The notes below the pieces were generated by a model, which was given only the letters and a program-made list of their open reading frames with translations, did not search any database and was not told the DNA's origin. This document shows positions 2,458 to 64,000 of a DNA stretch of 64,000 nt, one piece after another. Position 1 is the stretch's first letter, and each line of letters starts with the position of its first letter. Source of the stretch: Ascidiella aspersa (lineage: Eukaryota); NCBI GenBank assembly GCA_963924565.1, contig OZ004614.1:24056001-24120000 (forward strand), read 5' to 3'. A program made the position numbers and the translations under genes.

Positions 2458-4085
2458 TAATCTGCTCCTACCGTGCGTTTCAACCAGTTAAACTTAAATA
2501 TGCAAAAAATAAAAATAAAATGTTTCACTTCATTACACCAACTACAAGATGTCCGATAATATCGAATCGGAACCGATAGTATCGGCACAAGTCCGATATA
2601 CTCTGGGTGATATCGGTGCCGAATGTATGCATATTAGCATTTTTTGTGATCAAATTACTCTTCTAATTTGGAAAGTAAATTTTGACGCAATGTTAGCTTA
2701 CCAAAAATTAAAAGATAAGTAAGCTTCCCAACGCAGGTATGCGCCATTAAAACAAATTTTACTTCACCACCTGACAAATGTTTTCGACTGGTTATCGGAA
2801 TAAAACGTAAAATATCGAACATCCTACATACCACGGTATCAACGAGTTACTTTATCAATATAATTTAACTAAAACAAAATCAATCAGTTAGCATAAATAT
2901 ATTGTTGGAAATGGAACAGCAGTAAATTGAAACACAACAAAAATAAATAGTTTCGATATAGGAACATTAAAATTTGTAAAAAAGTTGTGTCATCAGTTGG
3001 CATCAAGAATTTGTTAAAACTAGGAACAACAGTAAGTTAAAACCAAAAATAAACAAATAAATTCGATATAGGAACATTAAAATTGGGGAAAAAACGCATA
3101 TAAGTTGTTTCATTGGTATATTACTTCACATAGGTCTGTGACTTACAAAATAGTCATACAGAAAACGGTATCAGGGATACAAATAGACTTTGCAGGCTTC
3201 ATTCTGGCATAACGTTAGACATCCCACATATTGTACAAGACAAACACAATGTTCTATATTGGTATAGAATTCCTATAATTGTAACGGGAGTCTCAGTACG
3301 TCGGCGGATATCAGAAGGAGTGGAGCTAATTTTAAATAGGAGGGCGGAATGAATAACATTTTAAATATTGTTGTTTTGTTCATTTTTGCAACCCGACCGA
3401 ATGTAAACAATAGTTTTATTATAGGCTGGCTATCAATCACAAAACAACTTCATAAAACACGTACAGTACGTGAAAGAAGAAAATAACTAAAACGTCTCAA
3501 AAGCCAAAAATTCCAAATAGTACACACTGAATTAGTTAAGATTGGTCCAAAATCCCCCAAATTTTTCTTGATCCGATAATTACACTTTCATTTACGGTCA
3601 CTGGTTGAGTCGCAGTAAAAAGGCTATAAATGATTTGACCTAATCTACAGTTATTTTAGAAATACCTTAACTGAGGCTTAAGCCATTTCATTCTGCCGTA
3701 TTTACAACACTGTTATTTTATAAAAAATATTTTAACAACAAAGTGTTATACCTTATGTGGCACCGCCATACAGTTTTTTTTTTAAGGTTTGATTTGGGTG
3801 ACCGCCAAGTAGTTTTAAGAGACCGCAAGTGTTTCATTTAAATACCAAAAAGTTGCAAGTACAAAATTTGGGAAACCGCTGGGGAAATTTCCAAAACACA
3901 TTAAAAAAACACTACGCCATACGTCGTAAAGGCAAATATAGTGCTAATATTGTGAGTTCGAAAAGTTGCAAAGGCCTATAGCGAAATAGGGATTAAAACG
4001 ACTATTGGTGGAGGGAGGGTTAACAAATAAAATAATAGAATAAGTGTATCGCATCAATATTTGGCGGACTTGGTGTCTGTTAAAT

Positions 4086-4517
4086 CAGAGTTTTCAAAAT
4101 TTTTTGGACCACGGACCACTACTTGTGAATCTGTTTTTTCCGCAATACAAACAATAAATTATTAAAACCTATTTTATTTATTTACAAAACTGACAACATC
4201 AATGGGACGGATGGCATTGCTTCTTTCTGCATAAATCATCCATTCTCGTCCACGGAAAGTCTGGACTTGGATTTTTTCCAAATGGCGATACTAATATATT
4301 ATTACGTCATAGACGAGGAATACAAGAAGTTTTCGTAAACAACTTTTTGACTATATACTGGATAGCAAAAGCTTTCGAAGTCAGTAAGTTGTGAATAACT
4401 GCGGAAATTATTGAAAGGGTACATACTGTACAACGTATATGTGTGACTTTTAATTTATTGTCATATCGCCACAGACCACTTGTGCAGTCGTCGCGGAGCA
4501 CAGTTTGGGAAACCCTG
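4086..4517. mobile_element. hAT-type MITE
   Basis: CAGAGTTTTCAAA / TTTGGGAAACCCTG ends, perfect TSD TGTTAAAT; single TGTTAAAT at the corresponding unit-2 site ~38439. Related copy starts ~32643. Confidence 0.8.
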
Positions 4518-7461: not shown

Positions 7462-8067
7462 TCAAGCCTCTCTATTCAACACATGTTCATAAGGATCGAC
7501 GTCTTCCAAATCTAAAAAAGTTAATATAGCACTGTGTGGTTAAGTTGACTAGAATTTATAACGAAAAGGTGCGCGATATTAGCATTTAAACATTAAATTA
7601 AAAATGTTGCCAATCCAATATACTTTACTAAACTTATATAAACAATTATTATAGACAACCTATTTCAGAATAGAAAGTTTCATGCGATACCTTCGACATT
7701 GTGGCTTTCATCCCTGCAAAAAAAACTTTATTAGAATATAAAAGTAAGAAATTAAGTGAAAACGATTGCGTACTTGATTGTTACTATTACAAATGTCCGA
7801 TAATTGACTTTTTTGCGATACCGATTCCCGATATTTTGCAAAACAGATCGCGATCTAATACCAAAAATGACGTTATTGCTATAATAAGCAAATTGTTTTC
7901 AAAAAGGAATAAAAGTTGCTGATGTAAGTTGGTTATTTAACTTACCAGCAATAGCCACCAATGCATCCCCTCCTTCTTCGATTACGCCGTCTTCTTTTAA
8001 CCGCGTCTATTCCCGACAGCAGCAGACAAGTCATCAAAAGCACGACCAAAAGCAGTCTAGAGTTCAT
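7462..8067 (-). CDS. Secreted Arg-rich peptide precursor 'a' (candidate antimicrobial peptide), 64 aa
   Basis: Exons 8067-7946, 7713-7691 (23-nt microexon), 7511-7462(TGA); 3'UTR exon from 7046 with AATAAA at 6908-6903. Translation MNSRLLLVVLLMTCLLLSGIDA-VKRRRRNRRRRGCIGGYCW-DESHNVEDLEDVDPYEHVLNREA*. Splice sites and frame are conserved in the diverged paralog c. Confidence 0.85.
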
Positions 8068-8254
8068 TGTGAGTTGCAGTGAATTAACACAAACTGAAAA
8101 GCAAGGACTTAAGTGTGAGAAATCAACGATACAGTCGTTACGGATAAGTCGATAGCGACGAAATCCTCTGCACGAATTAAGTCAACATTTTCTGGATGCG
8201 TACCACTCAGTGCATTTCTTCCGTCGCTGTTACCACAAAACAACATTTTAACAA

Positions 8255-8485
8255 CGAATTCACTAATGTACTGTCTGGGTTTAAGCATTAGCTCGATAAC
8301 ACACACTTAAGAAGTTGCTTAGCATGCCGTGTGGCAAGAATGTGCCTCATACACGCAAGTCACAATCTTTATTAGTGATTTATTTTTCTTCTAGGCCTAA
8401 CCAAACGTGTTATGACGCATAATAATCACCAGAATCACATCCGTATTTCCTTCCCTTTCTACACTTTATCCAGCACATAAGCTTG
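8255..8485 (-). promoter_or_regulatory. ~200-230 bp conserved module upstream of peptide genes (other copies ~13196-13405, 14770-15005, 16660-16842, 42290-42518, 43537-43745, 46795-47032, 47958-48162, 50205-50380)
   Basis: Recurrent block ...aagaagttgcttagc..ggcaag..gcaagtcacaatctttattag..ccaaacgtgttatgacgcataataatcaccagaat.acatccg.atttccttcc..., lying 5' of every peptide ATG. A regulatory role is inferred from position only. Confidence 0.5.
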
Positions 8486-8499
8486 GTTATTGCACTTAC

Positions 8500-8627
8500 T
8501 CGCACCACGTTCCAATGCACAATCTCCTTCTACCTCCGAAAAACCTCCGTCGTCTTTTACCCGCTTCTGTCGCCGACAGCAGAAGACAAGTCATCAAAAG
8601 CACGACCAAAAGCAGCCTAGTGTTCAT
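8500..8627 (-). CDS. Peptide precursor 'b' first coding exon (no own downstream exons)
   Basis: MNTRLLLVVLLMTCLLLSATEA-GKRRRRFFGGRRRLCIGTWC-GA|GTAAGT. Upstream TTTTCAG acceptor and phase-2 donor are intact; it is followed directly by the upstream module of gene a. Confidence 0.7.
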
Positions 8628-9228
8628 TGTGAGTTGCACTGAATTAACACAAACTGAAAAGCAAGGACTTAAGTGTGAGAAATCAACGATACAGTCGTTA
8701 CGGATGAGTCGACTGCGATGAAATCCTTTGCACGAATTAAGTTTCTTGCCTGCTACACACGAAGCAAAAAAAACATATTAGGGACCGCGGTAAAATAGTT
8801 TAAGAACTCCTGACAAAATCAGATATCAACGATACCATCGTTACGGAATGAATCTATTGTGGCGAAACCTATTCACGAACTTTACATTTAAAACAAACCT
8901 AGGAATTCAAAGTTTACTCAGGTTTTACTACAAAAATGAATAAACAGTAGCAATATTGAAACTTGTGTTAATTATTTTCCTAAACGACGCATATAACCTT
9001 AAAGCTGCTCGTGTGCCATAAATATAACGTAAATAACGGTTTGAAAACCAATTCACTAATGTACTGTCTATAGATCTAAGCCAGGGGTGCCCAACCTGTA
9101 ATACGCGTACCACTAGTGGTGTGTGAGTAGCTTACGTCTTTTCACAAAAACTTGGATTTACAATTCATATTTTGTATATGGTTTTGTTTACAAAAAAAAT
9201 CTAAAGCCAATTCATTGTTACGTAACTA

Positions 9229-19459: not shown

Positions 19460-22400
19460 CTAGTAAGCTCTCACGTACACTGATTGGCCAACAGCAGCGT
19501 TACCAATCCCAAACTGCTCGTATGCTGTGTCTTCACTTGCAGCAATCCTTGAGACGTTGTAAGCTTGACCAGGCGACTCGCCATTGGCTGATACGTAGGC
19601 AACAGGAATGACGTAATCACTGTCGTCAGACGGATGGTTGGTGACGTTATAGCTGGGATGAGCAGCAAAGCTAGTGTTGACGTAGTTGTTGCATTGTCCT
19701 CGAGATTGATCTTCAGCGTTGATGGACTTAGGGTCGTGACCTAGAAAAAAATAAAGCGTTGAAAAAAAAATAAAATATTCTTAGGCACAAAATTCTATTT
19801 GATGCACATGAAAATTCTTCAAATGACAAGACATATTTTGTTAATATCAGACACCAAGATGTTTGTAGTATATTTACCTGCTTGGGGTGGAGAACGATTG
19901 TCACTTTTCCGTTTTTCAAGCTTTGTTAAAATTTGGTTTCTGAATGAAAAAAGCACAAATATATTCACTTATATATTTAGCAAACACACAAATATATTTC
20001 ACAAAATGGCTGTCGGGGCTTACAATACCCACCTCTTGACGTAAACAAGAACGGCCACTCCAATTAGTATTATTACGGCGCAAGAAACTCCTATTGGTGT
20101 AGCAAGGCTGAGACTAGAAACAGACTGATTTTCTGAAATTAAAATACTGTTCGCTATCCTGTTTGTATATTTATGTTTAAAAGTCTTAACTTATGATGTG
20201 ATTCAAATTATCAGTATACGCGAAACTTGGGGCAACTTTACAAAAGAGCTTAAAGTTGTACATTACGTATAAGCTGAATATAACAATAAAGTTGCCTTGC
20301 GTAAATATAAATTTACAAAGCAACATCCACACTTTTATATGTGCCAGTATTTCATAAAAACATTGTAGAGTCTAGCATGGTTTACTAAAAACATTTGAAT
20401 GAAGTCACCTATTGGCAGATAACATACGCCATTCGATGCAAGAATTGTATTTCTGCACAATGACGTAATTGGGTGAAAATCTGACGTCACCGTGTCTCCC
20501 TTGTTCAACGTGACGTCATGAGTCAGTGTAATGAAAGATGTCAGTGTTATTTCGGAGGTTGTGGTTTTGTTGTTTTTGCTGGTTCTCTTAATTTTCAACT
20601 AGATACAAACGAAGATTTCAGAAAAATATACTTGGGAAAATCAATAATTCAAATGACATACCTTTGCACTTGTTATAACTGAAACAGAGGTCGACGGAAT
20701 TGTGATTTTAATTTGGCAGATTTTGTTTTGAAGGGTAAGTTTAGAAACGATTCCTGCAAAAACGTTTGAAGTTGATCCAGAAACAGTTGGCGTTTGGGGG
20801 ACTTTCCAAATATCAGGAAACAGCTTAATCTAAATTATATTGTTTTAATTGGAAAATGTAAACCAAAGAATCCTAACTAGTTTTTTTTTTAAATAAGGAA
20901 AATTAATGATTTTGAACTTACTTGAATCTTGTAATCTTCATTTCCAGGCAGGGTCGGAAATTCAGTGGAGTAAACATAGTTTGCAGAAGCCGTTGTTTTG
21001 TAATTTTTCACGATGTAAGTAAGCTTGTCATAACTTTGTGCAATCAGCTGAAAGTTGAAATCCCGGGAATATTTTGTTTCGTCAATCCACTTCACAATTA
21101 TTTTGTCGTGGTGGCACTTGGTAGCTTCAGTAAAACGAACAACTAAAACATAGAAAAGACAATTATTGTTACCAAAAAACATTATGATAATGGAAACGCA
21201 AAAAGCTAAAATTTCTGCTTATTTTGTAAACTAGAGTATTATTTTTCACTAATACTCGTTTGGTTGGTAAACTAGATTATTACATAATACTTACTGGGAA
21301 AAACACAGAGAGTGGTTAATAGAGCATTGCAATTCTTGATTTGTGATGTTCCGTTAGCAAATGAAGGACATTTGTCCGTTTCTAAAGTTGCATTCTCATT
21401 ACCTGAATTAAAGAGAAGATGTAATTAATTTAGCCTTCATTTACTAAAGTGGACAAATGTGGTAAAATTACTTTGTGTCCAAGCTGCAAACTTTGCAAGA
21501 GAGCTTCCGTTGAGATATTCCGACGACGGTAACTTGCCTCCGCGGTTCTTACAGTGGAGTTTGGCATCCGTGTATTTTCTGCTCGTGTTGTAACTGACGT
21601 AAAACTGTCCATTGTCGAACAGTAAATCTGAGGAAACAGTATTCTAAATAAAGTAACATACCCAGCATATGGTTTTAAACTATTATTTGTGCATTTTTTG
21701 CGGACCTAAAACGATAACCCATACAAAATGTCGTGCGAAATTACTGTAATTGTATATTTTCTCCGTGTACAGTATTTTGGCTGTAAACTCACATTACAAT
21801 ATTGCAATGTTTCACCAAAAAAAAACACTAAAGAATTACAAACGTTGCATAGGCCACAAAAAAGTGTTGTTACACAGAAAATAAAACACAGTTTATTACC
21901 TTGGTTAATCATAGGAAAAATATTCCCTGTAGCACCGAATTCATTTCGTGCCGAACACTTTACAGTCGCGTTGGCGCCAAATATCGCGGACGCTTCTATT
22001 GTTAGTTGTGACGTCACTGTTTTGATTGTACTGTGGATTGAGACGTAGGTTGGTGACGCGTCGCTGATGATTGTGACGTTTTGGTCGTTGATTGTCCAGT
22101 GAAAAAAGGTCGACTGGTCGGCGGCAAACGTACAATTCAACGACTGTGATTGGCTGAATTCTGCACCTGGTGATGACGCGTTAAGAAACCTTGGGGCAAC
22201 TGAAATGTTCAAAAATCGCAACCTTATTTAATAAAATTAAACCAGAAAGTGTGTCAAACATTTGCCCAAACATGCATTCACAATCTGGGCCCCGAAGATC
22301 GCCGGTTCGAACCCCCGATTCCCTGGCTTAGCAGGCGTTGAGTAACTTAGGTTTAGCTTCAAATAAACAAAGTTGCAAATTTAGTTAGGCTAAAAACATA

Positions 22401-25400
22401 TGTCTAAGCAGGAACTTCACGGCATGAAGAGAAAACATATGTTGATGAAATATATTATATTTTATTTCTACAATAATGTGAAGGATTTACAATCGAAATA
22501 TATTCGGTCATAAAAAATATTTTCATTTAGCAAATCGCTATTGATCCGTAAGCATTAAAATGTAGTTCCGCAATGGCTTGGATTATTTATTTAAACGGGT
22601 CTTTATACATTGTTTCTTCAACAAAGTGTAAACCATTAAAATATTTTGTTATGTTTCTTTGGGCTCTTACCTCTCACAACTAATGTTTTTGTTATTGCGG
22701 TTAGTATGCCGTCGCCCACTCTGTTGCTTGCATGGCAAACGTAATATCCACCGTCCGCTGTTGAATGAGTTGCTTTGAATGTAATAACAGCAACAGTCTT
22801 GTAGATCATCGTTTGAAGTATAGTCTGATATACATTAGCATCACTGCTTGCCGATACATTTTGTGAAGCTCTGTAAGTAAATTCAAAATATGCACACGAT
22901 TGTCTTATGTACTGGATAACATATTCAAAAGTTCAGAACATCACAATTGTAACATTCCACACGTGCTGTTTCGACACCAGAACTGTATAAAGCACAATAC
23001 CAAGAGGAATACTTTGACCAAGAAGCACTTAATTTTATTGAGCCATTTCAGGATTTTAGGCATCAACCAAAATGTATTAAAATCGTGTTTTTTTACAGTT
23101 CTTACAAACAGTGCTGTGGAGTCGGGGCCGGACTCGGGACTCGAGTAAGATTATACTTGGTAGCTCATTTGCAAGTTTGAAACCGATAAAGCCGTACACT
23201 GGAAACCGTAAGGGCGGAAAAGCATAGAGCGGAACATATTAAAACCACAGTATGTGGGTTGGTGGTACGCATGACTCTCCTTTGAAAATTGATGCATATC
23301 TACATTATTTTAAATATGGGGAGGGTGAATACTGTTTGTGCCGGTCACAGTACTCGATGGATTCGGTTAATTTGACCGGAGTAGAATTTGGGACGCGGAC
23401 TTTGCTTCTTTTAAACCGTAGTGAAATTTTTTTAATCTATCTTCAACATGATCAATTGCGTTTAATTTATAAATAGCGCCCGATTAAAACACGGCATTTT
23501 TGCTCACTTTGTCCAGTAAACTTCTGGCGTTGGAAAGCCGTACGACGTGCAGTTGATTTGTGGCTGTTGATCATCTTTGAGAGTAGCTGTTGCCGACGAA
23601 AGAGATATGTTGGCCTTCGCTAAAAATAACGATGAATCCTGTTAACGAGTGCAACTTTCCTTTTTGCTACTTTGTCCCAATTAATAACGCATACCTTGCA
23701 GTTGAAAGGTGGTTTGAACAGCATTAGCATTGTCGTTGTTGTTGCTTGCTGTGCATTTGTAAACTCCAACGTGTTCGATGCTTGCTGCGTTAAACTGGAG
23801 ACGAACAATCTGACGGTCATTTGGATTGATGATCGTCGTCATTTGATGTATATGAGATGCCGGATTGGAGCTGACAGTTTGAGCGTTTCTGTGAAAAACA
23901 AATATTTACAATTCTTGCAACAGCAGTATTTTATTTTTAATTTTTTAATAAATAATTACATGCTCCATGCGACTGTTGGTGCCCGCCATCCATAAGACAC
24001 GCAATCCACATGGAAACTAGCTGGAAACATTTGGATCCTCCAAGGTGATGATGGGGAAAGTGAAATGTTAGGTCCAACTGAAAATATTTCAAGTGTTTAA
24101 AAATTACATCATAAGGCATTGACGAATTATTGTTTAAAAAGTTTTTACATCAATAAAATAATCCAGTGGTCGGCAAACAGTGGGCCGCAGAGCCATTCTA
24201 AGTGGGCCGCGAGGTCAATTTGAACGCAAAATTTTTCGCGCGTCACGCGTATATTCTTCGTTTTATACTATGTTTCACATTATTATATGGCAATGTTTTG
24301 GCAATCAAGGCGCCGTGTAATATTCCAACTTAAAAACAAGTATCCTGAATCTGCCTCTGTTTTCGTAGTGGTTTCACGCAGTGGGCCTTTTATATCTCTG
24401 AAAAGAGTACTTTGGGCCGTGACAAAAAAAGTTTCCCGACCACTGATATAATCATTAATTGTACACCATGATGCTACAGTAAAAATATTTTAAAGCTGTA
24501 ACGATGGTAATGCAATTAGCTTCTTACTTTTTCTACTTCTTACGATTTTTACACTTATGAAGTATGCCATGAATACAGTATTTCTTGATATTTAATTGTA
24601 TCAATACCCTATACTTACTTAATATTTGCAGAACAGTAAACTTCTCTTTTCCCCCGTTTTGAGCGGTGCAATTGTATCTTCCTCCCACTTCAACCATTGC
24701 AATTGGAATGTGGAGTGTTGCAGTTGATTTGTATTTCGCAACTTCAGTCAAATTAGTTTGATAATACGGATCGTTGTTGTTGGAAGAAACCCCCACATCG
24801 TTTGTTCTAAATTTATTAGCGTCGATATATTTAGTTTCATTGAGACACACCAACGCTAATAAACCGAAACCAACCTCTTCCGAAATACGTTAGGCATGGG
24901 ATTACCATAACTGGTACACGTTGATGTAATCGATTTATCGCCATAATTCGCGGTGATTGCGTTCGGTGTTGATAAAGTCATGTTCGGCTGCACTGCAAAA
25001 TTGTTTACATAGGATTTGACAGAAAACAAAAGACATCCGTGAAACTAACGAGCACATAATTTAGCTTCAGTACCTAATGACAATTAAATGCACATACGAT
25101 TTTAAATTAGTAGAAATTTATGTACAAATCAATATTATTCCATTTGTAACTTAGTAAAATTGATTTGCTAAATATAAGCCCAGTGGTCGGCAAACTTAAT
25201 TTGTCGCCACCCAAACTGATCACAAAGTTACGTCATAAGACAATTAACTCTAAACACCTGTTGTTTGGAGCGCGGATATGGAGCTTATCCCAGCCTAATT
25301 GCGCGTCACACGAAAAAAAGTCATTAATCGTTTTAAATTGGCCAAACGTTATTAAAAAGGATATGTAACCCATGAAACACATAGCAATGCATTCGAATAC

Positions 25401-28400
25401 TTCTCAAAATAACGCAGTTTATAGTCCAACTCAGGGATGGCCAGCCCGCGACCAGATATTCTCACTTTCAGTAGCCTTTTTTAAAACAATTGTTTCGACT
25501 ATCACGTGTAGAACGCGCAGTATTTGATGTAGGCCCAATCTTATGTATAAGGCTATACCGGTAATCGAGCCTAGTGTCGCATTTCAACATCCATCAAACT
25601 CTTGTTCACCCATCATTGTTAAGCACGATGTGTGTTTCTGCGGACTGTTTTAAGAAAATATATCAGCCCGGAGGTGTCGTACCATGGCGTGTAAACTCAA
25701 TTTTTCGCGCTTTGCGCGATAAGGCCGACATTTACTTAAATATTTGCACACGAGTTCACTCTCGAAGAACGGGTGTTTATAAGTTAAGTTGTTTTATGAC
25801 GTTACGATATGACGTAAATTATGACGTTACCCCTTCAGTTTGATAGGTTGTGCAAGTGGCAATACGGTCCTTTCAGTTAAAGGCTGGTCTTCCCTAATCT
25901 AACACGAATTCGACTTTGTAGCGTTCAAAAGTTCCACGGCGCAACTTCCCCGCAGTAAGCATATGCTTATGGACTGAATATATATATATAAGCACGAAGG
26001 AAAATATATTTATACTGTTAATTTGGCTAAGGGTACAATTTGGAAATCCATCACCTGGGGGCCCTATGATGCAAGTATGAGCCTAAATGAAAATTCTTAC
26101 CAACGCCATTAATAAAACATGATGAATGTACGGTACAGCTATCACGCATCCCACAACTTCGTGATAAATTGAAATAATAAACGGTTGGTCGCGCTCCACT
26201 AAATATGGCTCGAAGATCCACTTTTAGTCTGCGGCCAACAGTCTGTCTCCAACTGACTTAAAACCTTAATTGTTATAAATTGCGCAATAAAAATAAGCCC
26301 GTCACCTGCAACAGTTAACGTTCTTGTTTGTTCGCCCCCAGCTGAGTTTGCTGCAACTTTACAAACATAACTTCCACCATCATGCACATTCACATGTTTG
26401 ATGTGTAGGGTTCGTCTCACGTAATACCCACTTGAAGATGTGGATTGGTAAACGTGGTGGGTTGTGTCGGTAGAAACTAAAGAGTTACCCCTAAACCAAA
26501 GTAGAATAATTATAAAATATTAACATTGAGAAAGCAAACAAACCCTGAAACTGTATACATTAACGTATTGTATCAACTGTTGAGGGTGCTACACGCACAA
26601 GGTGTCGTATTTAAAAAAAAATGAACAGCGTTTTTTTTTTGAACCAATGCAAAAATGATTCAAATAAAAAATAACATTTGCGTAGAATTAAAAGATATAA
26701 TTTTTGGGTTCAATGACCTTATTCCCTCATGCCAATCAGGAAAAGTTTGAACACATTTTGTGAAATAAAACTAAGCTACAAGAATTAATTTCGTACACTT
26801 ATTGCGCACATAACTTTGTCAAATTGCTGAGCGTTTGGCCTTGTTAAAAACTCTGAGCGTTAAAAAACGCTGAACACAACCACGTTCCCTTTGGCTGCAC
26901 GGCGGCGTGTAGTAAACGCACTATGTTCGGAGAGAAAAAAAAAACGTTTTAGGACCTAAATTAATCAAATGGACTTTTGGCAGTAATACTGAATATATGT
27001 GTCAATCACAAACGTGGGGGTTCTGTCCGTAGAAACTGATGACCTACTCTAAATTCAAATATAATATATATAAATTAATGTTGAGATGGTAAACATAACC
27101 TTAAACTGGATACACATACGCACTATAATAACCATAGAGGGTGCTACACGCAAAGGGTTTTAACGCTTTCGGCGAACTGACCTACATGATGCTAATTTTG
27201 CAAACTAAATGCGCTGGTAACTTGGCCAGAGCGAAGGGCGTTTAGCACACAGTTAGAAACTCAGAGCATCTAATATCGCCCTGCACACCCACTTACGGCG
27301 CTTATGGCTGCGCACTATTTTGGGAGAATCGTTAACCTTAAATAACAAAATTATACGCAGTCAAACGGACTTTTGGCAGTATTACTTAATATATGTGTCA
27401 ATCCCAAACATACAATATAATTACAGACCTCATCCAATCAACTTGTGGTGTTGGGTTTCCTCTCGATTCGCAAACAACTTGTTGTGTTGTTCCATGCGCA
27501 AGGTCAATAGTTGTGGGTGAAATTGTTAGCGTTGCCGGTACTGAAACCGGAAAATAATAAATTGAAAGCCTCTGAGTGAGATTAGTCGTCGTTACAAAGG
27601 CAAATTTCTAAAGATGTCAAAGACAATGCACATATAAAACGTGGTCGCTAGAACAGAAAATTAAAATATACCTATTAGCTTGTCGCTCACATAGAACTGT
27701 AAATTTTAAATTAAAAAAGGAAAATTATGCGATACATTACTTGCGTGGCTTCTTCAATGTATAACCAGTGCTTTGCACTTAGAAGTTCTAAGTTAGAACC
27801 AAGGCTGGGGAGCCGGAGCTGGAGCCCGGAGCCCGGAGCTAAGCATTTTCTCTGGAGCCAGAGCCGGAGCCGGAGCCATTGTTATTAGTTTTGTGGAGCT
27901 GGAGCCGGAGCCGGAGCCATTGTTATTATTTTTGTGGAGCTGGAGCCGGTGCCGGAGCCATTTTTATTATTTTTGTGGAGCTGGAGCCGGAGCCGAAACC
28001 ATTTTTATTATTATTGTGGAGCTGGAGCCAGAGCCGGAGCCCTTTTTATTATTTTTGTGGAGCTGGAGCCATTTTTCAATTTGTGCTGCTAAAGCTAAGA
28101 AATTATATTTTGTTCCATCTCCAACGTCAGTTAGCCAAAAGCAATTTTTAAAACTTGCCATTGAATAAGTGACTGGTGGCACCGGAGCTGGAGCCGGAGT
28201 CATTGTGTGTGTGTTTGATGGCTCTGGAGCTGGAGATGAAGCTGGAGCCGGAGCCAAAGGATATGAGTTTTACTACTCCGGATCTGGAGCCGGAGCCAAA
28301 GGATATGAGTTTTACGACTCCTGAGCTGGAGCCGGAGCTAATGCTATTTTACGGTGGCTCCCCAGCCCTGGTTAGAACTGTCAAGGCGATATTGGTAATG

Positions 28401-31400
28401 TAGTATCGGAGGCTTCTAATTTACTAAGCTTATCGAAATTGAAGCAACTGTATGGCATTTAATAAGCATTTTGTGCCACTAGACATAATATTTTTGGTCT
28501 CTACTTACCAAGGATAGTTAGAGTCTTGCTTTTCACGCCACTTCCAGCCCAGTTGGTCGTTTTACATTCGTACAAACCCCCGTTTCCAGCGTCGTTGTTG
28601 ATTCTAATGTAAAGATCAGAGTTGCCAGTTGATCCTCCGCTCGTTGTAGTTGAAACTTGATAAACTACAGTTGATGAACTGGAAGATATCTCAGCGTTGT
28701 TCCTTAAAAGTAAAAAAAAAGTTTGTGAAATTCATTCTGTAATAAAGTGCGACTATAGTAAATCCGTTCTTCATTTTAAAATCTTATGCTTTATTATGCC
28801 ACGATTTGGTCATCACTTTGTTTTAGTATACCTTTTTGTATTGTAAGGATTGCTTTTATTCAAGATATTTAAAATTGTATTTGAAAGTAAGACATATTTT
28901 GTTTTTCTAAAATGCTTGTTTATCATTTTTTTTATTTAACTATAACATACTTTAGTTCATACGCTATAAAACAACCACACATTGAGAACTTATTTTAACC
29001 AGCAAGTAGTTCGTCAAGTTTATAAAACAAACGCAAAAGCGTGAATAAATACACGTTTACATAGTACGTTTAGGTTGAAATAAATGTAAAATAACATCGA
29101 AGTTTTGGGCGAGTTACCCAACTTATTATGGCTCATCGCTTAAACGTAACTAATTACTCGTTTACATTGTACGTTTAATAAGTGTAAAACTAACATCGAT
29201 TTCGGGCGAGTAAATCAGTTTGTTTAGTTTATTGCATTGTCTGTCTCGCATATTCGATTCCATTGTGTCAACAAGATGCAACCAGAAATAAGTAAGATAT
29301 AAACACAGACTTCTAAGTCCATCTTACCTAAACCATCTACACTGAGGCTGGTGATACCCCGAGCATGTGCATTTCTCAACTGTCATTATGTTGATGCCCA
29401 ATGTCCGTGTTGTAGATGTGAGATGCAATGCAGAAGAACCTAAAAGCAAAAATAAATTGTAAACACGAAACTACCCAACAACTTACACAGAACGTATTAC
29501 ACACCAACTATTGATTCACAAAAAATCTTCAAGAATATACGTAGCGGAAAAGTTCCTAAGACAACACGTTCCTATATTTATTTTACAACTTTGAATACAA
29601 TATTGTTTATTTCTATATTAGGAAATATCTAAAAGTAAATTTAATTACCAGCTACAATGTTGACTGTTGCAACGGCAGTACAAGTTCCAGCACTATTTGT
29701 TGCAGTGAACACGAAATCTCCGTTGTGTGACAAGGCGACAGAGTTGATGACGTAAGTAAAGCTCGTCCCAACTAAATTACTTATTACGTTGGTGTTTGTT
29801 CCACCATGGGCAACAACCACGTTAAGAGGTTCCTTGTAAAAGCCAGAGATGGTTCCTGTGAATGTCAAACTGCTTCCCAATGTTGGTGTGCTGGTTGATG
29901 ACGTCACAGCCAAGTTGCGTTCGACTGCGTTGAAAAAGTCAAGAAATTAACCAAAAAAAATACTATTTTGCTATTGGTTATAAAGGTTAATTATTTTTAT
30001 CATACTGTATTGTTTGTTTGTATTGCTATGGTGTCCAATTTACGAAAAGACTGTCTTTCAACTAACGCCGTAAAACCTCATTAATTTTGATCGCAGGGAA
30101 CAAAGCAGTGGCGTAGCCAGCCGAAAAATTTGAAGGGGGGCCAAAAAGTTGGAATTTTCGGTTTGCTTTTACCATTGTATATACACCGTAACGAACACAA
30201 ATAACAATGAAAGTAGTAAAACTACATTAATGTTTAGCAAACGTTATATTAACTACATCGTTTGCGACGTAACAATGCATGACAACTTAAGGTGTGGCAT
30301 GCCTGGGATCGACTGTTGTGGTACTGCTTATAAATGCTAAAAAAAATAAATTATTAAGAGTAAAATATTTATAAAGGCCCCCTGGCTACGCCTATCATTC
30401 AAATTTGCCCTTGCAGAATCAATGGCGTACGAAATTGTGAATCTTAGAAACCATCGATGGGTAAAGTAGCCTATGGTATCATTTCAAATACGAATTTAAA
30501 TTGAACCTGCGCAAACCAATTTTACCCTTATATTTGGATGGCGGCCTATACTTTATTAAGAACCTCCGGCGTATAAAGAAATAAATAGTCTTGCAGAACC
30601 GTCAGTTTATTACTTCTGGAACATCTTAAATCAAGCTAGTAAATTACTTTAAACTAATTGAATATGTTGTTGCTTACAGGCATGGTTTCAATTGTACAAT
30701 TGCCTTTCCGGCAAAATTTTATTAAAGTTTATTTTTTATTCGGTTTAAAATTCGAGTCTACGTTCACACGTCGTCATCCATACTACTAATGAAAAGTGTA
30801 ATAAAACAACTTTCTAACTTTAATAGTTAATGTAGTTCAGTGTTTGTTAACCTTTTTTAAGTCAGGGCACACCCGGCAAGCGAAACGAGTGCGATTTTTT
30901 TTGGTATACGTGCATTTCTTTTAAATTTTTTGCAAGTTTTATTACCTTGCCAAAACTAAAATAAATGTTAACAAATATACGTCCAATACGACGCACGTGG
31001 CAGCCTTCCACGACACAACGGTAAAAAGGCACTGATCTAGTTCACAAGACAGCATCAAAACGTAAACAAACCAGACGTGCAAAGATCATTTGCGCGAAGC
31101 GCGAAAATATTTCGCACTTACTTAGGTAAAAACGTCTAAAGGTATTTGAAATGAACTCGTGTTTAGATTATCAAAGAGGCGGCGGGCCGGATGAGTTACA
31201 TTGGCGGACCGGATCCGGCCCGCGGGCCGTAAGTTGCCGATCCCTGATTTAAACTAATTGCTCATCAAAACTGTTTTATTGTTTTCAAGTACTAATGTTG
31301 TAAAATTACACACCCAACGAAGGTAAAAAGCTGTTTGCCGTAAACTCATCACGCAAAGCATTAGAGGCTCAAACATTCCAAAATAGAATGTTTAACCAAT

Positions 31401-34400
31401 ACTTCCCTCTTAAGTTAGTACAGTTAGACCGATCAGCGCAATTCACCTTGGTATTCGCAAATGTGATAGAATGTTCCAGTACACCCCGCAGCGCCCCACT
31501 TCCAAATGTAAGTATAACTTCCTGGTGACCCGGATTGTGTTCCGAAAAACACCATACATGATCCAAAGCTTGTTGGTCCACTTCCACTTATCCATCCATT
31601 GTATCCTGGTGTTGACCAGGTGCTGCCTGCTTAAAAAGATTGGTCGAAAAATAATTATTTTAAAGTTCGTACGTGTTGTGCAAGCATATAGCTATCGTTT
31701 GTTGTCTGCTTTGTCTAAATTTGTGTTTCTTTTATTTTTGACAGAATTATGTTTATAAAGAGAAAACGTTGACACCCATGAATTCTTACCGCCATCACTT
31801 TCTTATTTTGCTAAGCCAACATAAAAAGAATGGAATGATTGAGAAGGAAACAAAATCCCACTTTTAAAAAGCGAAAAGTTAGCACTAAGGATCATCACAC
31901 TTTTTCGGAGAACTGGAATGCCTGACTAACGAGGGCCGAATATAATTTTGTTCCAACTTCATCAATTTAGTTTTTGTTAATCAAAGAAACTATATGTATA
32001 TTATAGTGTATATTACGTCTTATATGTATATTATTTAATAAAAAATGTCATGAGTTTTATGAAATTGTCGTTCAGTTTTATAGTTCTTTTAAATGGTTTG
32101 AATTTGTGTCCGACAATGGTACAACCGATTAATTTAGTCTTAGATTTATTTTCGCAAAAAGACACGGACATTAAAAGGCCGGCCAACTAACTTTTCAAGT
32201 TGCAAGTTTCCAGCATGTGGTGCATATACATTCTGAGTGTTATATTGCTTTAAACATATAGATCAATACAGACAGCGCCGGCAAAGTCTTTATTGATGCA
32301 GTACGCCTACGGTATTCAGTACGCCTACGGTATAGTATAATGAACCGTCCACAAAGTAAATAAATCAACTACTTTATTCGACATACTTCTATCAACGAAA
32401 CGTCATTCTGGACTTTTGTAATGCACAACCATTACGACAAAATACATATTTCAACATAATATATTTTATCGTGCAAATTTCTCCGTAATAAAACCGATAG
32501 TTGCGACGACCTTAAATGACAAGTTATATGTGAACTTTCGCATAATATTAAACAAATAGCCCCACTACTAGTTATTTTTGTTCAACGTTTCTATATTTTA
32601 CACATTGTACGTTACAGCATTCGGTTTATGTAACCCTTAAAATAGGGTTTTCCACACTTTTTTGGACCACGGACCACTATTTGTGAATCTGTTTTTTCGC
32701 GGACCGCAATACAAAGCAAAAAATAATTAAAACCAAATTTTATATATTTACAAAACTGACAGCATCAATGGGACGAATGAGATTGCTTCTCTCTGCTTAC
32801 ATCATTAATTCATCATAAACTCAAAGCGCAACAAGTAAGATTTACGATATTGGTTAGCAAAAGCTTTCGAAATCGATAAGTTGTGAATAACTGCGGCAAT
32901 TTAATTATTTTTTAAAGAATACACATGCTGTACAACAGGGGTCGGTTAAAACCAAACTCAGAAAGGTCTCTGTGGGCCGCACAAAATGTTAACTAAGAAT
33001 TATGTTATTAAAATGTTAGAACAACTGTTAATCAGGCGGGCTTCGGATATGTTTTTGCACTTAAAATCGTGTTTAGTTACTTTTAAGGAGGCAGTAAAGT
33101 GTTGGCGCAAAGCGGGACAAAAAGGGTTTGTTAGTTTCAAAATTCGAGTCCACACGTCGTTATTCAATATTGAAAAGTGTAATTAAACCATTTTGAGAAA
33201 ACGCGATAACTTAATGGTTAATCGAGTTCAGTGTTTGTTAACATACCGTATTTAAGTCCGTGCGCACCTGGCGAGCGAAGCGAGCGCGATTGTTTTTTGG
33301 GTACACCGGCATTTCTTTCAAATTTCTTGCAAGTTTTTATTACATTTCAAAATAAAAAGTAAAGAATGTATGTCCAATATTTTTGAACACGTTTTCCATT
33401 TGTACGCGACGCACTTTGGCACCTGGCAGTCAGTCTTCCACAGAGCAAGAAGCGCTAATCTAGTTCAAATGACAGTATCATAATATAAACAAACCTTATG
33501 AATAAAGATCGTTAACGCAAAGCGCGAAAAATGTTCGCACTTACAGAGTTGAAATAGTCAAAAAGTATAAGAAATGGACTCGTATCTAGTTTATCAAAGG
33601 ATAAATTACATTCGCGGGCCGGATCCGGCCCACGGGCCAAAGGTTGTCGGCCCCTGCTTTACAACATATAGGTGTAACTTTTTAATATCTTAATTCAATA
33701 CCCTAAATAAAAAATTCAATACCCTAAATAACATGCTCAAACGATAAGTAAAGTTAAAACGTGTAACAATTGTAGGTTGACTTTCTTATGGTAAGATAAT
33801 TACCTGAATAGCTTGAAAATGTCGTTCCGTCTGGCCACTTAAAGTCGTTTACAGTGCGTTCCCCGCCAATGAAGGCATCTGGCAAATGATTTGTTTTAAC
33901 ACTTGCAATAAACAATTTAGGCACAATGTCGATGTTTGTATATACTTACAAACGTTTGAGCCTCCAATCCACCCGTTTCCAACCTTGTTGCTTGCGAGAG
34001 TGCTGAGATGGCTTTGTGTTGCTTCGTCAGGAATACTTGCCAAGTTACCACCTCCATTAATGCAAGCTGTCTTGGCTGTTGCTTGAGTTACTTTGACGCT
34101 CGAAAGCACGAAGTTTCTTCCCTTGCATGTTGCAGCGCCTATAACAGCACATAATGCTCTAAGCTGAATTTGCGTTTATTTTTCCAACCGAATCTAACTA
34201 CAAAAGGTTTTAACGATAATTAAGTTCGACGATTGTCAAAAATGTGATGCCATTTGACAGAACCATGAACAAAATGCGCGAAATACAAAAATCGAAACAC
34301 AGATATTACAATACAATAACAGCATATTGACAGATAAACAAGTGCTCCGCAACCTTTTTCCACTTGCGGCAAACCAAGAGTACTATAACAATACGGCGGC

Positions 34401-34812
34401 ACACTTTATAAAAAAAGCAAATATCCTAGGCTGCTCAGAAGTAACCTTTTACCTAACTTCAAACCATATCCCTAACTTTATCACTAAATCCCCCAATATT
34501 CCAACCATAACTTAATTTTTAACCCCACACATAACCCAACACTAGCCCCAAAGAAGGACAAACAACTCAATGCCAAAACAGCGGCGCACCAACGCCTCCG
34601 AACTAAAGCTCCGGAACGTCGACACCAAAACATCTGATGCAGATCGATGACCCCCGGTCGTCCCATACCCCTTGTTCTACAGTTTTCACTCTGAATTAAA
34701 CTTGCAATGAATACTTCGTAAAATGTTCAAAACTTTGGTAAATAACACAATAATACAAACCTGTTTTGTCGATTCCAACGGCCGTTAACAATATCAAAGA
34801 TAAGATAAACAT
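19460..34812 (-). CDS. Multi-exon type I transmembrane receptor, copy A (SP-CTLD-7xIg-compact CTLD-FN3/FN3-like-TM-Tyr-rich tail), 1296 aa
   Basis: 24 GT-AG exons with compatible phases: 34812-34761 (MFILSLILLTAVGIDKTG signal), 34138-33950, 33878-33804, 31626-31447 (CTLD: ACINGGGNLASI..WIGG..FKWPDGT..C..WKW..C..YHICE), 29924-29649 (Ig1), 29439-29328+28702-28509 (Ig2), 27540-27429+26490-26306 (Ig3), 24992-24875+24806-24619 (Ig4), 24077-23960+23888-23695 (Ig5), 23619-23508+22870-22671 (Ig6), 22199-21900 (Ig7), 21627-21472+21402-21295 (compact CTLD), 21142-20922, 20829-20662, 20598-20409 (FN3/FN3-like), 20132-20033 (TM: PIGVSCAVIILIGVAVLVYV-KR), 19939-19878, 19740-19460 (tail, TAG). Total 3891 nt, open throughout. 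Exons 5-24 and the visible part of exon 4 are matched in copy B. Confidence 0.88.
24164..24445. mobile_element. hAT-type MITE (CAGTGGTCGGCAAAC family)
   Basis: TIR CAGTGGTCGGCAAAC / GTTTCCCGACCACTG, TSD A(A/T)ATAATC; empty in copy B (~58095). Confidence 0.8.
26450..27405 (-). repeat. Intronic tandem duplication carrying a dead 5' fragment of receptor exon 9 (also in copy B ~59780-60735)
   Basis: 26450-27006 resembles 27010-27405 (gagggtgctacacgca at 26582/27137; ggacttttggcagta at 26970/27367). 27048-27010 reads AG|AGTAGGTCATCAGTTTCTACGGACAGAACCCCCACGTTT, similar to the exon 9 start. Confidence 0.7.
27800..28370. mobile_element. hAT-type MITE filled with GGAGC(C/T) minisatellite
   Basis: TIR CAAGGCTGGGGAGCC / GGCTCCCCAGCCCTG, perfect TSD GTTAGAAC; internal GGAGCTGGAGCCGGAGCC arrays; absent from copy B intron. 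Explains the ELEPEP/GAGAG ORFs. Confidence 0.88.
30106..30395. mobile_element. MITE with GGCGTAGCCAG inverted termini
   Basis: cagtggcgtagccag ... ctggctacgcc; absent in copy B intron 4. Confidence 0.6.
32936..33656. mobile_element. hAT-type MITE nested in another MITE in receptor intron 3
   Basis: CAGGGGTCGG / CGGCCCCTG ends, TSD CT(G/T)TACAA; a related truncated copy lies at ~30740-31246. Confidence 0.7.
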
Positions 34813-61900: not shown

Positions 61901-64000
61901 TGTCATACCGTTATAACATGCTCAATTGCATGCGTTTAAAAACCTTCAAAACAAAACGAAGTCACATATAATGCCCATCCTACCTGAACCATCTGCACTG
62001 AGGCTGGTGATAACCCGAGCAAGTGCATGTCACAGATGTAACAGCGTTGATGTTCAATGTCAGTATTGTAGATGTGAGATCTAATGCAGACGAACCTAAA
62101 GTAAAAATGAAGTTGTAAATAATAAACTACCCAACAACTTACACGCAACCTTTTACACACGAACTACTAATTGACAAAAAATCTTCAACAATATACGTAG
62201 CGGAAAAGTTCCTTAAGACAACACGTTCCTATGTTTAATTTAAAACTTTGAATACAATATTCTTTATTTCTATATTATTAAATATCTAAAAGTAAATTTA
62301 ATTACCAACTAAAAACAAATTCCACGATCGAAACATTTAACATATTTTTATTCAAATTATAATAAAGCGATTTACCGACTGTAAGTTGAACTGTTGTTGA
62401 ACCAGAACAAGTCCCAGCACTATTGCTTGCAGTGAACACGACATTTCCGGTATCAGACAAGGCGACAGAGTTGATGACGTAAGTAAAACTCGTTCCAACG
62501 AAATTACTTTTAACCGTTGGGTTTGTTCCACCATGAGCAACAACCACGTTAAGAGGTTCGGTGAAAAAGCCAGAGATGGTTCCTGTGAATGTCAAACTGC
62601 TTCCCAATGTTGGTGTGCTGGTTGGTGACGTCACAGTTAAGTTGCGAGGAACTGCGTTAAAAAAAATATTCATTTGACAGTGGTTATAAAGTTTCTCTTT
62701 AGCATAGTTCTACCGTATTGTTTATTTGTCTTTGTGTGATCTTAAATTAACGAATTTTGCCCTTGTGGAAATCAATGACATACAAAATTGTGAATCTTAA
62801 CTACCATCGATGGATAAAATATGCTATCATTTCTAAAACGTATATGTGTACACCAGAGGTTCATAAACATTTTTTTTTGTGCGACACAAGTTTAAATTTT
62901 GTTAACACCTCGCGACCCGATTAAGACACGGAAACATAGTATAAATTATATTGATTTTTAGTGAATTTGGTCTTAAACAAGTAATGCCCTGTAATGAACT
63001 ATATTTGTTTTAAATTTATACATGTTGTATTTTAAAGAAAAGACTTGAATATCCCAAAATATTAATGATGCAATAATTCAGTTCAACAGGACAAAACCAA
63101 AGAAGTGTGTTTGATGCAATCATATATAAATTTTTAACAGTCAAATATTTGTCAAATTTAAATTGAATCTGTGCGACCCAATTTTACCCTTGTCGACCCC
63201 TTATGTGGATGAGGGCGTAAAGCAGTGGTCGGCAAACTGAGGGCCGCGGCCGAAATGTGGGCCGAAGAGCCAATTTTAGTGGGCAGCGAGTTACCTATTA
63301 ATAGCTTAGTATTATCCTGTAGTTGTGGGCCGCGTGATAGCCTAGCATTACATTCAATGCACTTTATTTTAAAAGCAAGCAAGGAGCCATGTAATATTTC
63401 ACCTTAAAATCAGAATCCATCACTGTTTTCGTAGTGGTTGCACGTAGTGGGCCTTTAATAGATCTGAATAGACTACTTTAGGCCGCGACAAAAAAAGTTT
63501 GCCGACCACTGATGGCCTAAAGGTTACTTTATTTAGAACCACCGTCGTATAAAGAAATAAATAGTCTTGTTGTTAGTTTTACTTCCGGACAATCTTAAAC
63601 CAAGCTATTCAATAACATTAACCTAATTGAATATGCTGTTGCTTCCAGGAAGTGTTTCAATTGTACAATTGTCTTTCCGGACAAATTTTATTAAACTAAT
63701 TGCTCATCAAAACTGATTTATTGTTTTCAAGCAGTAATATTGTTTGACCGAAGGAGTGAAAAAATTTTTTTTGCAGTAAACTCATTCTGCAGAATATCAG
63801 TGGCTCTCAAAAACCAAAAAAGAGGAATAATAGATACTTTCCCCTTTAGTTTGTAGTTAATCCGATCAGAGCAATTCACCTTGGTATTTGCATATGTAGT
63901 AAAGTGGGTGAGTACACAACGCATCTCCCCACTTCCAAGTGTATGTATAACTGCCTGTTGAACCGGATCGTGTTCCAGTAAACACCATGCAACTTCCACT
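52942..64000 (-). CDS. Receptor copy B (paralog of copy A), 5' part beyond window end
   Basis: Exons >64000-63880, 62651-62376, 62095-61984, 61464-61271, 60904-60793, 59821-59637, 58651-58534, 58466-58282, 57933-57816, 57753-57560, 57485-57374, 56429-56230, 55750-55454, 55096-54941, 54875-54768, 54656-54436, 54320-54153, 54089-53900, 53614-53515, 53420-53359, 53222-52942. Phases and lengths equal copy A except two in-frame 3-nt deletions; no stops seen. Confidence 0.87.
63223..63511. mobile_element. hAT-type MITE (CAGTGGTCGGCAAAC family), independent insertion
   Basis: Perfect 15-bp TIRs CAGTGGTCGGCAAAC / GTTTGCCGACCACTG; internal similarity to 24164-24445; absent at the copy A site ~30545. 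Confidence 0.8.

Follow-up and report, generated by a model that had tools for sequence, protein, structure and literature searches.

The locus raises the question of whether a receptor gene and the peptide genes beside it were amplified as a functional pair or whether the peptide genes travelled with a receptor array. The original prediction proposed a co-duplicated sensor and effector module of innate immunity, with hitch-hiking or two haplotypes assembled in tandem as alternatives. In the window, the whole 64,000-nucleotide stretch of Ascidiella aspersa DNA analyzed here, the evidence on balance favors a real receptor array in which the ectodomain is diversifying and the peptide genes are passengers.

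Tandem organization of the locus

Self-BLAST followed by chaining identified 26 same-strand collinear blocks between two units. The chained blocks cover 19,814 of the 29,183 bp examined in unit 1 and 19,637 of the 27,301 bp examined in unit 2, with an ungapped identity of 90.1% over 19,316 columns and offsets of 30.4–34.5 kb, a similarity that far exceeds chance. The units lie about 33–34 kb apart and all genes are on the minus strand. Self-BLAST, gene models and a nucleotide HMM agree on the predicted order, a receptor gene followed by a same-strand peptide cluster, repeated, and the collinearity of the units supports the duplication of both together.

2511–31558, unstranded: unit 1, collinear with unit 2 (spacer, peptide region and receptor exons 24–4), from self-BLAST and chaining
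36793–63991, unstranded: unit 2, collinear with unit 1 and leaving the window at its right edge within receptor exon 4, from self-BLAST and chaining
31640–36790, unstranded: single-copy stretch with exons 1–3 and the upstream region of receptor R1, matched elsewhere only by dispersed repeats
9229–12889, unstranded: 3661-bp insertion in unit 1 only, with an empty site in unit 2 near 43262
1–2457, unstranded: partial second copy of the transposon-like element at 9229–12889, 73–82% identical, from self-comparison
8278–16845, minus strand: repeat of about 190 bp, four copies, from self-comparison

The proposed cassette of about 34 kb holds as a period (33–34 kb) but not as a delimited element, as neither unit boundary lies within the window. 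Because both boundaries fall outside it, the copy number is at least two, and the array may extend in both directions. A duplication junction or a false join could be located only in 31640–36790. At position 2458, taken earlier as the unit start, a transposon copy ends on its right side, and the collinearity reaches up to this point.

The insertion at 9229–12889 has an 8-bp terminal inverted repeat, CACTGTCA, and a TA target duplication. A repeat with a 10-kb offset (10–2459 vs. 10205–12891) was not counted with the cassette, being this transposon-like insertion. Five further copies of the repeat of about 190 bp were found in 42291–50381; all copies have one orientation and are confined to the peptide regions. 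A likeness of this repeat to a hAT transposase C-terminus was discarded, with a transposase family found by Pfam in none of the six frames. Rfam and ARAGORN gave no matches in the window.

Receptor and peptide gene structures

Gene modeling with predicted splicing gave one complete and one partial receptor gene.

19460–34812, minus strand: receptor R1, 24 coding exons, 1296 amino acids, without internal stop; signal in exon 1; C-type lectin-like domain (CTLD) in exons 2–4; seven Ig domains in exons 5, 6+7, 8+9, 10+11, 12+13, 14+15 and 16; degenerate CTLD in exons 17–18; Ig/FN3-like beta-sandwich in exon 19; segment of about 119 amino acids in exons 20–21; transmembrane helix (TM) in exon 22; 115-residue tail with eight tyrosines in exons 23–24
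52942–64000, minus strand: receptor R2, running from exon 4, which the window edge truncates, to exon 24; stop-free, from the gene model

Both copies read without a stop, have GT-AG introns and share 83% amino acid identity over 1170 aligned codons, with an overall dN/dS of 0.43 (0.093/0.218). The predicted gene model describes a type I membrane protein with an Ig ectodomain and at least two tail tyrosines; there is a single TM at about residues 1160–1182, and the tail has eight tyrosines in both copies. Exon 2 carries a CTLD signature, with a PDB match at E 9.9e-9 and a Pfam Lectin_C match at E 7e-4 that is under the curated cut-off, and the second lectin domain is weaker (collectin-11, E 0.013). 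A BLAST match between this second domain and Ig7 was judged compositional because the Ig profile gave it no support. Foldseek with the exon-19 model returned 0 matches at E ≤ 1e-3; in a wide structure search the best match had Z 6.8 (rmsd 2.4, 68 aligned) and all matches were Ig-like sandwiches, which do not single out FN3 for exon 19. The ESM Atlas likewise gave only FN3/Ig-like leads for this exon, all below 0.9. Pfam showed no meaningful family for exons 4, 15, 19, 20, 21 or 24, and an apparent ORF at 27797–28168 was rejected as a 41-bp tandem repeat within an intron. None of 53 candidates among longer proteins matched exon 16 at E ≤ 1e-3, and none of 23 matched exon 24 at E ≤ 0.1; these negatives are weak because the queries were single exons.

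Peptide exons were located by a nucleotide HMM and counted at E < 1e-20, giving five first, three second and three third exons in the whole window; one weak exon-2 match (E 0.14) was excluded. The HMM exons match the predicted content of both units.

7462–8067, minus strand: peptide gene a, exons 8067–7946, 7713–7691 and 7511–7462, 64-residue precursor, from HMM and predicted splicing
8500–8627, minus strand: orphan first exon b (signal and core), from HMM
41496–42101, minus strand: peptide gene a', from HMM
42533–42663, minus strand: orphan first exon b', with an in-frame TGA ahead of the second Cys, from HMM
45714–46416, minus strand: peptide gene c, exons 46416–46286, 45965–45943 and 45763–45714, 67-residue precursor, from HMM and predicted splicing
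45090–46791, unstranded: 1702-bp segment holding gene c, missing from unit 1 (clean junction 14763/14767), from alignment

The encoded layout is a putative signal, an Arg-rich core (33–44% Arg) with a C-x4-C loop, and an acidic tail, and the charges of core and tail nearly cancel (+9/−8 in a, +7/−8 in c). The cysteine pair is present in a, a', b and c. The 22-residue leader, as judged by hydropathy only, is hydrophobic with a small-residue end (best 11-residue Kyte–Doolittle mean 3.17; 2.66 in a'). As helices the cores are weakly amphipathic, with a whole-core moment of 0.10–0.23 and a best 11-mer of 0.24–0.55 on the Eisenberg scale, not HeliQuest. The a' precursor also has 64 residues; its core and tail are identical in protein sequence to those of a, and its signal peptide has three replacements. 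No difference separates the mature cores of a and a' (0 of 56 nt), so selection may act on at least one peptide in each unit. Exon b, with a core charge of +8 and an intact C-x4-C, is a c-like gene truncated 18 nt into intron 1; its donor is weak and its splice phase is that of a exon 1. Birth and death of the peptide genes, as originally proposed, is borne out by the deletion of c from unit 1, the truncation of b in both units and the nonsense codon in b'.

A protein search with the peptide alignment gave 0 of 7 candidates at E ≤ 10. Two peptide-profile hits among 1.84 billion representatives (E about 3–5e-4) were long tandem-repeat translations and were set aside as noise. The same profile had one match only in the PDB (E 1.7), peptide c had no lead in the ESM Atlas (best 0.75), and none of the three peptide exons had a meaningful Pfam family.

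Divergence along the units

Divergence between the units forms two arcs, one old and one young. In the old arc, the spacer differs by 13–18% and introns 4–20 by 20.6% by global alignment (range 9.5–30.6%), while local blocks of the receptor introns are 78–90% identical, divergence being higher where alignment is poor; ectodomain dS is 0.22–0.59. In the young arc, introns 22–23 differ by 6%, exon 24 by 1%, the 3' flank by 7–10% and the peptide blocks by 3.5% (171/4927). The dS falls from 0.59 in the CTLD to 0.03 in the tail. Within the young arc lies a near-identical tract:

19350–19740, minus strand: exon 24 and the first 110 nt of the 3' UTR, partner 52832–53222, from alignment

This tract has four differences in 391 nt, and exon 24 has no synonymous difference at 62 sites (P about 2e-6 at the Ig-region rate). 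The differing divergence of introns, peptide blocks and last exon indicates that the receptor and peptide halves have different histories. Since the spacer of a tandem array is the upstream region of the next receptor, the old segment runs without a break from spacer to ectodomain. The receptors are intact in both units, and gene losses have hit the peptides only.

These patterns point to a tandem array, with a period of about 33–34 kb and at least two copies, whose maintained cargo would be the large type I membrane receptor. The copies diverge in promoter side and ectodomain, and unequal exchange or gene conversion may hold down the differences in the tail exon and in the peptide block downstream of it. 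A small tandem cluster of peptide genes would already have stood beside the receptor before block duplication carried these genes along, with redundant copies now being lost. Divergence outside the cell with homogenization inside it is as expected for a recognition receptor.

The same mosaic could arise if two divergent alleles of one receptor–peptide locus had been assembled in tandem, with the 3.5% as heterozygosity and the ectodomain difference as an old balanced polymorphism. Conversion is inseparable from allelic mosaicism with only two copies and no outgroup, and the dS gradient from CTLD to tail resembles what may be seen between alleles at a recognition locus under balancing selection. 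In Ciona savignyi, the placing of two alleles in tandem is a documented assembly error (PMC1868934), and a neutral diversity of 8% is quoted for this species (PMC8270832), so that 3.5% is within ascidian diversity; however, the documented cases have medians of 0.7–3.5 kb (PMC1868934) vs. 34 kb here, and the whole window contains 0 N. Moreover, the renewed divergence of the spacer beyond the peptides would require a second divergence peak, and a false join must fall in the 1.9 kb from the R1 start codon to 36.7 kb, sparing the R1 signal exon. The haplotype explanation that the original prediction allowed is weakened by these findings and appears unlikely, and the tandem repeat is probably real.

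Candidate functions of the receptor and peptides

In a real receptor array, the product is most likely a cell-surface recognition receptor whose N-terminal lectin-like domain and Ig stalk would bind a protein-type ligand. Receptor clustering could lead to phosphorylation of the eight-tyrosine tail, on which SH2/PTB adaptors would dock. The secreted products would be Arg-rich cores, each forming a single small disulfide loop and stored together with a charge-neutralizing acidic tail, and the precursors of Ciona suggest that the cores are most likely released as antimicrobial peptides. By analogy alone, an innate-immune flavor of both receptor and peptides is plausible.

The duplication may also be real with its parts serving other ends, the receptor in adhesion or guidance and/or the C-x4-C peptides as signaling ligands, possibly for the receptor itself. 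The Ig domains are I-set-like, with NCAM2, Dscam, Otk and Robo as the best solved-structure matches (E 1e-5, single exons), and the tail has YxN and YxxP motifs, which are adaptor-type rather than ITIM/ITAM. Neither the R1 nor the R2 tail matched canonical ITIM, ITSM, ITAM or hemITAM motifs in a pattern scan ([S/I/V/L]xYxx[I/V/L], TxYxx[V/I] and YxxL/I-x6-12-YxxL/I); I, L or V follows at +3 in 0 of 8 tail tyrosines, the sole hydrophobic +3 residue being F. EPN or QPD plus WND, the motifs of calcium-dependent sugar-binding C-type lectins, are absent from the R1 ectodomain and from the in-window part of that of R2. With a tail lacking canonical motifs and Ig domains nearest to adhesion molecules, the receptor has only a putative immune role, and a six-residue disulfide ring also occurs in oxytocin- and urotensin-type hormones. 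Nevertheless, lineage-restricted, tandem, ectodomain-divergent receptors are generally typical of recognition systems and not of conserved guidance genes, single-exon queries found no conserved orthologue, and Arg-rich cores with an acidic tail resemble tested antimicrobial precursors of Ciona. Non-immune roles are rather improbable.

Like the LCAMP precursors of Ciona (Ci-MAM, Ci-PAP, KH.S921.1/.3 and KH.C1.640; 50–100 residues), the precursors here have a putative signal, a cationic core (+7 to +9) and an anionic C-terminal piece (−8), with Arg runs and comparable lengths of 64, 64 and 67 residues; this order was found in 17 of 22 Ciona candidates (PMC7387483). By eye and unscored, W-x4-N-V-E-D is common to KH.S921.1 and gene a where the core meets the tail (5 of 9 identical), and the start of the signal peptide resembles the second consensus, MN..LL.LL, of the same study. 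In contrast to the Ciona linear cationic alpha-helical peptides, which exclude cysteine by definition (PMC7387483), the cores here have two Cys, and as helices they score as weakly amphipathic on the Eisenberg scale. Profile, PDB and protein searches revealed no sequence link to the Ciona precursors.

Among ascidian receptors, Botryllus FcoR/Fester shares with R1 and R2 a type I Ig-superfamily organization, a multi-tyrosine tail, tandem clusters and copy-number change of a linked pair (PMC12582321). FcoR is Ig-Sushi-Ig-Ig, whereas the receptor here is CTLD-Ig7-CTLD with no Sushi match; its tail has ITIM, hemITAM, core-1 (YxxI/L/V) or core-2 motifs, none of which occurs in the tails here; and it pairs with another receptor, whereas the neighbor here is a secreted peptide (PMC12582321). 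On reading the window, no linked three-TM Fester-family partner was seen. Domain-level likeness extends to the Ig adhesion molecules NCAM, Dscam and Robo and to mannose-receptor-family CTLDs (best structure match E 1e-8, single exon), although none combines CTLD-Ig7-CTLD. A Botryllus C-type lectin with an Ig domain is reportedly soluble. Another large ascidian membrane protein is the haemocyte ITAM glycoprotein of Halocynthia, presumably A74. By its description, this glycoprotein uses tail-tyrosine signaling in phagocytosis and haemocyte aggregation and has two ITAMs, while the pattern scan found none here (PMC5465252). The Botryllus lectin also joins CTLD and Ig in one tunicate protein, with, going by the title of the report, one Ig domain and without the seven-Ig stalk, TM and tail seen here (Pancer et al., 1997).

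In a selected module of the originally predicted kind, the receptor would sense microbes and the linked peptides would serve as its own co-regulated output, the pair being amplified as one. Each unit retains an intact receptor together with one or more intact peptide genes, downstream on the same strand by 6.5–12 kb, the core of a does not vary from unit to unit, and Botryllus FF/FcoR is an ascidian precedent for gene-pair copy-number change (PMC12582321). However, the two halves differ in divergence (3.5% vs. about 20%), peptide content is unstable, and R1 is separated from its peptides by the 3.7-kb transposon. A crude scan, compatible with co-regulation, found no match longer than 13 nt between the 1.9 kb upstream of R1 and the 600 bp upstream of a, b and c. 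Sites of kappaB type (one mismatch) were not above background upstream of the peptide genes or R1, occurring per kb at 0 (a), 1 (b), 0 (a'), 4 (b'), 1 (c) and 0 (R1) against 0.77, the b' hits being overlapping matches at two places. A functional module is therefore improbable, and hitch-hiking of the peptides in a receptor array, which the divergence mosaic and the peptide-only losses fit, explains the linkage better. In ascidian operons, the downstream acceptor directly abuts the 3' end of the upstream gene. A trans-spliced polycistron was rejected here because of the distance from receptor stop to nearest peptide start (6526 and 10,833 bp); poly(A)-type hexamers lie 137–420 nt past the receptor stop. 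An AG, the candidate site for a spliced leader, lies 26 nt ahead of each peptide start.

We give little credence to a selected, co-amplified pair of a CTLD-Ig7-CTLD receptor and its own disulfide-loop peptide (effector or ligand), in which the ectodomain diversifies, the tail/peptide block is homogenized and b splices onto shared acidic-tail exons. Tandem arrays of immune-type receptors and of antimicrobial peptides under birth and death are familiar, and duplicated blocks commonly carry passenger genes; a selected and co-regulated pairing, if true, would be an unusual animal case of physical sensor–effector linkage. Worth keeping is the 1296-residue architecture, CTLD-Ig7-CTLD-beta-sandwich-TM with eight tail tyrosines, for which single-exon queries and literature searches gave no counterpart. 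Equally worth keeping is the cysteine-loop variant of the ascidian signal–cationic–anionic precursor, a class lost from the published Ciona screen, which filtered out cysteine-containing candidates (PMC7387483).

Extent and boundaries of the repeat

The window consists of AT-rich (~35% G+C), intron-containing DNA with no N. Self-BLAST revealed a long same-strand diagonal across it, and chaining yielded 26 collinear blocks (2511-31558 vs 36793-63991) that cover 19,814 of 29,183 bp in unit 1 and 19,637 of 27,301 bp in unit 2, with an ungapped identity of 90.1%. The repeat is genuinely present in the assembly, and these data bear out the original prediction of a tandem receptor plus peptide repeat. 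Co-duplication of the receptor and the peptide cluster also holds. The offset between the units varies between 30.4 and 34.5 kb because each unit has insertions and deletions of its own.

Neither end of the repeat lies inside the window, and the copy number of the array may exceed two. On the right, the repeat leaves the window within receptor exon 4. On the left, collinearity reaches to ~55 bp from 2457, where a transposon-like element with the inverted repeat CACTGTCA and a TA duplication has its right terminus. The cassette start predicted at 2458 is therefore an insertion edge, as the same end bounds the second of the following elements:

1-2457: second copy of the DNA-transposon-like element, 73-82% identical to the 9229-12889 copy
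9229-12889: transposon-like insertion of 3661 bp, ends formed by the CACTGTCA inverted repeat and a TA duplication, empty site visible in unit 2

This element may be CACTA/EnSpm-like. Its terminal motif also occurs internally (about 1507 and 11879), and it contains exon-like pieces on the + strand with no long ORF.

Receptor and peptide genes

The receptor of unit 1 (R1) was modelled with 24 exons (34812..19460, minus strand) encoding 1296 aa with no internal stop; exons 4-24 of the unit 2 copy (R2) are likewise free of stops, with GT-AG borders in 20 of 20 introns, splicing being predicted in both. Exon 2 matches C-type lectin domains (CTLDs) of the mannose-receptor family (PDB, E 9.9e-9; Pfam Lectin_C, E 7e-4, under the cut-off). 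Six of seven unit 1 Ig-exon queries matched Ig families at E<=0.1, one attaining the curated cut-off, and the seventh gave a weak match, in unit 2. Ig2-6 have two exons per domain and are mutually alignable, and their profile also detects Ig7 (E 1e-6) and, weakly, Ig1 (E 0.013). Exons 17-18 form a degenerate second CTLD (collectin-11, E 0.013; intimin C-type lectin, E 0.04), and the predicted fold of exon 19 is a six-stranded sandwich (pLDDT 83.8) with Ig/FN3-like structural neighbours and no specific match. Exons 20-21 received no domain assignment.

A single TM helix precedes a 115-aa tail with eight tyrosines in R1 and R2 alike, including YxN and YxxP patterns. Pattern scans found no ITIM, ITSM, ITAM or hemITAM in either tail and no EPN, QPD or WND motif in the ectodomain. 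Because the eight tyrosines are kept and those tail motifs are lacking, the receptor can, judging from its sequence, act like a phosphotyrosine-signalling recognition receptor, yet falls outside the ITIM/ITAM class and outside FcoR as defined in the accessible part of PMC12582321. The first CTLD (33804-34138, minus strand) contains two successive WIG-like segments that span the junction of exons 2 and 3, and its loop that usually holds sugar-binding motifs is rich in Gly, Ser and Trp. The core Trp of Ig4 (24875-24992, minus strand) is missing in R1 and present in R2, and Ig1 has a single Cys and no Trp.

A nucleotide HMM detected five first, three second and three third peptide exons in the window. 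The complete genes, a (unit 1), a' and c (unit 2), encode a 22-aa hydrophobic leader, an 18-21-residue core with 33-44% Arg, a terminal C-x4-C loop and a charge of +7 to +9, and a 24-residue tail with a charge of -8. The proposed birth-and-death of peptide genes was supported: c is absent from unit 1 (a clean 1702-bp gap), b' carries an in-frame TGA, and exon b is a c-like gene truncated 18 nt into intron 1 and fused to the repeat upstream of a. No difference among b, b' and c occurs within these 18 nt. Exon b (8500-8627) agrees in splice phase with the first exon of a and stays in phase with a's tail exons (7462-7713), to which it could splice in a possible variable-first-exon arrangement arisen by deletion. 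Its donor score of 4.1 is at the bottom of 43 receptor donors (range 4.0-10.9), and without splicing a stop follows immediately. The cores differ at 6 of 62 nt between b and b' and at 0 of 56 nt between a and a' (Fisher P 0.03). Precursor a' departs from a at three residues (L to S, L to F, S to P), all within the signal peptide (42036-42101, minus strand); these changes reduce the hydrophobicity of the a' leader, and secretion of a' may be impaired.

A conserved, pyrimidine-rich TTTTCAG lies 26 nt upstream of all five peptide starts (8067, 8627, 42101, 42663, 46416); it may be a splice acceptor (score 4.5-9.3) serving a spliced leader or a non-coding exon, or else an initiator element. Retention of intron 1 in any of the five genes introduces a stop within one codon and would give a cationic core without the acidic tail.

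Divergence along the unit and the basis of linkage

Receptor introns 4-20 differ between units at 1272 of 6183 aligned sites (20.6%), a figure inflated where global alignment forces insertions to align, local blocks being 78-90% identical. Ectodomain dS rose from 0.22 in the Ig region to 0.59 in the CTLD (40 codons available), and the spacer, left of the peptides, diverged by 13-18%. The flank between receptor and peptides diverged by 10%, the peptide blocks by 3.5% (171 of 4927 sites), and the stretch made up of exon 24 and the 110 nt that follow it differed at 4 of 391 sites. Along the array, an old arc (upstream region and ectodomain) is followed by a young arc (tail to peptides). Conversion or unequal exchange would produce this pattern, with ectodomain divergence allowed or favoured; dN/dS was 0.43 overall and exceeded 1 in no domain.

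The receptor and peptide halves do not evolve as a unit, and every loss falls in the peptide cluster, the receptors being intact. We therefore consider it probable that this is a genuine receptor array carrying peptides as passengers. Foremost among the alternatives, although unlikely, is that two alleles were assembled in tandem. Alleles could show the 3.5% divergence of the peptide block, and a balanced polymorphism could account for the receptor gradient. In Ciona savignyi, the available text of PMC1868934 documents tandem allele misassembly with median lengths of 0.7-3.5 kb, and that of PMC8270832 quotes neutral diversity as 8%. Against an allelic origin stand the 34-kb length, the lack of an assembly gap, the spacer as a second divergence peak, and the confinement of any false join to 1.9 kb before the R1 start. 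Non-immune roles of the receptor or peptides rank next and are doubtful. The functional sensor-effector module originally predicted is the least likely, not being supported: each unit retains one intact peptide gene, but the halves diverged unequally (peptide blocks vs introns), losses are peptide-only, and receptor and peptide upstream regions have no common sequence >13 nt, a weak test of co-regulation. Similarly weak as such a test, kappaB-like sites showed no excess upstream of peptides or receptor. An abutting operon was rejected because the receptor-to-peptide gap is 6.5-10.8 kb.

Known systems and minor repeats

According to the accessible part of PMC7387483, 17 of 22 candidate Ciona LCAMPs have a signal-cationic-anionic order, and microbial killing was demonstrated for five of the candidates. 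The a, a' and c precursors have the same segment order, and the core/tail junction of a matches Ciona KH.S921.1 by eye at 5 of 9 positions. As cysteine-containing peptides were left out of that screen, the C-x4-C peptides here represent a variant rather than members. Marine AMPs, according to the available portion of PMC10608444, generally have a short anionic propiece that neutralises the mature peptide. The closest precedents found are Botryllus FF/FcoR, whose gene pairs vary in copy number as pairs (PMC12582321, as far as accessible), an ITAM-bearing glycoprotein of Halocynthia and a lectin of Botryllus that has an Ig domain (accessible part of the review PMC5465252). Word-indexed and profile protein searches found no homologues of receptor exons 16 and 24 or of the peptides. 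The style of the precursors, the base composition and the compact introns suggest an ascidian origin, which no database hit confirmed. No account of the receptor architecture or of receptor-AMP co-duplication was found in the tunicate literature covered, which includes few subscription papers and neither the original Ci-MAM/Ci-PAP reports nor those on Halocynthia. The interest of the locus lies in the receptor, which is unusual, and in the cysteine-loop peptides, rather than in the linkage between them.

A ~190-bp repeat occurs in nine copies, in a single orientation and only in peptide regions, with one copy upstream of each of a, a' and c:

Unit 1 copies: 8278-8485, 13195-13414, 14799-15005, 16651-16845
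Unit 2 copies: 42312-42518, 43536-43754, 46826-47031, 47957-48162, 50204-50377

It could be a remnant of dead peptide units, an enhancer or, by motif likeness, a hAT relic, a reading that received no support from Pfam. A stretch at 22260-22330 (minus strand) resembles by eye a tRNA-derived SINE box, and ARAGORN and Rfam found nothing there. A 595-bp intronic insertion specific to unit 1 (27780-28374) contains 41-42-bp tandem repeats, of which a 123-aa ORF was rejected as a spurious product. Dispersed MITE-like repeats were also present:

30735-31251 and 33127-33661: MITE-like pair
4080-4245 and 32637-32811: MITE-like pair

In addition, many of the introns contain 100-600-bp insertions that are present in one unit only.
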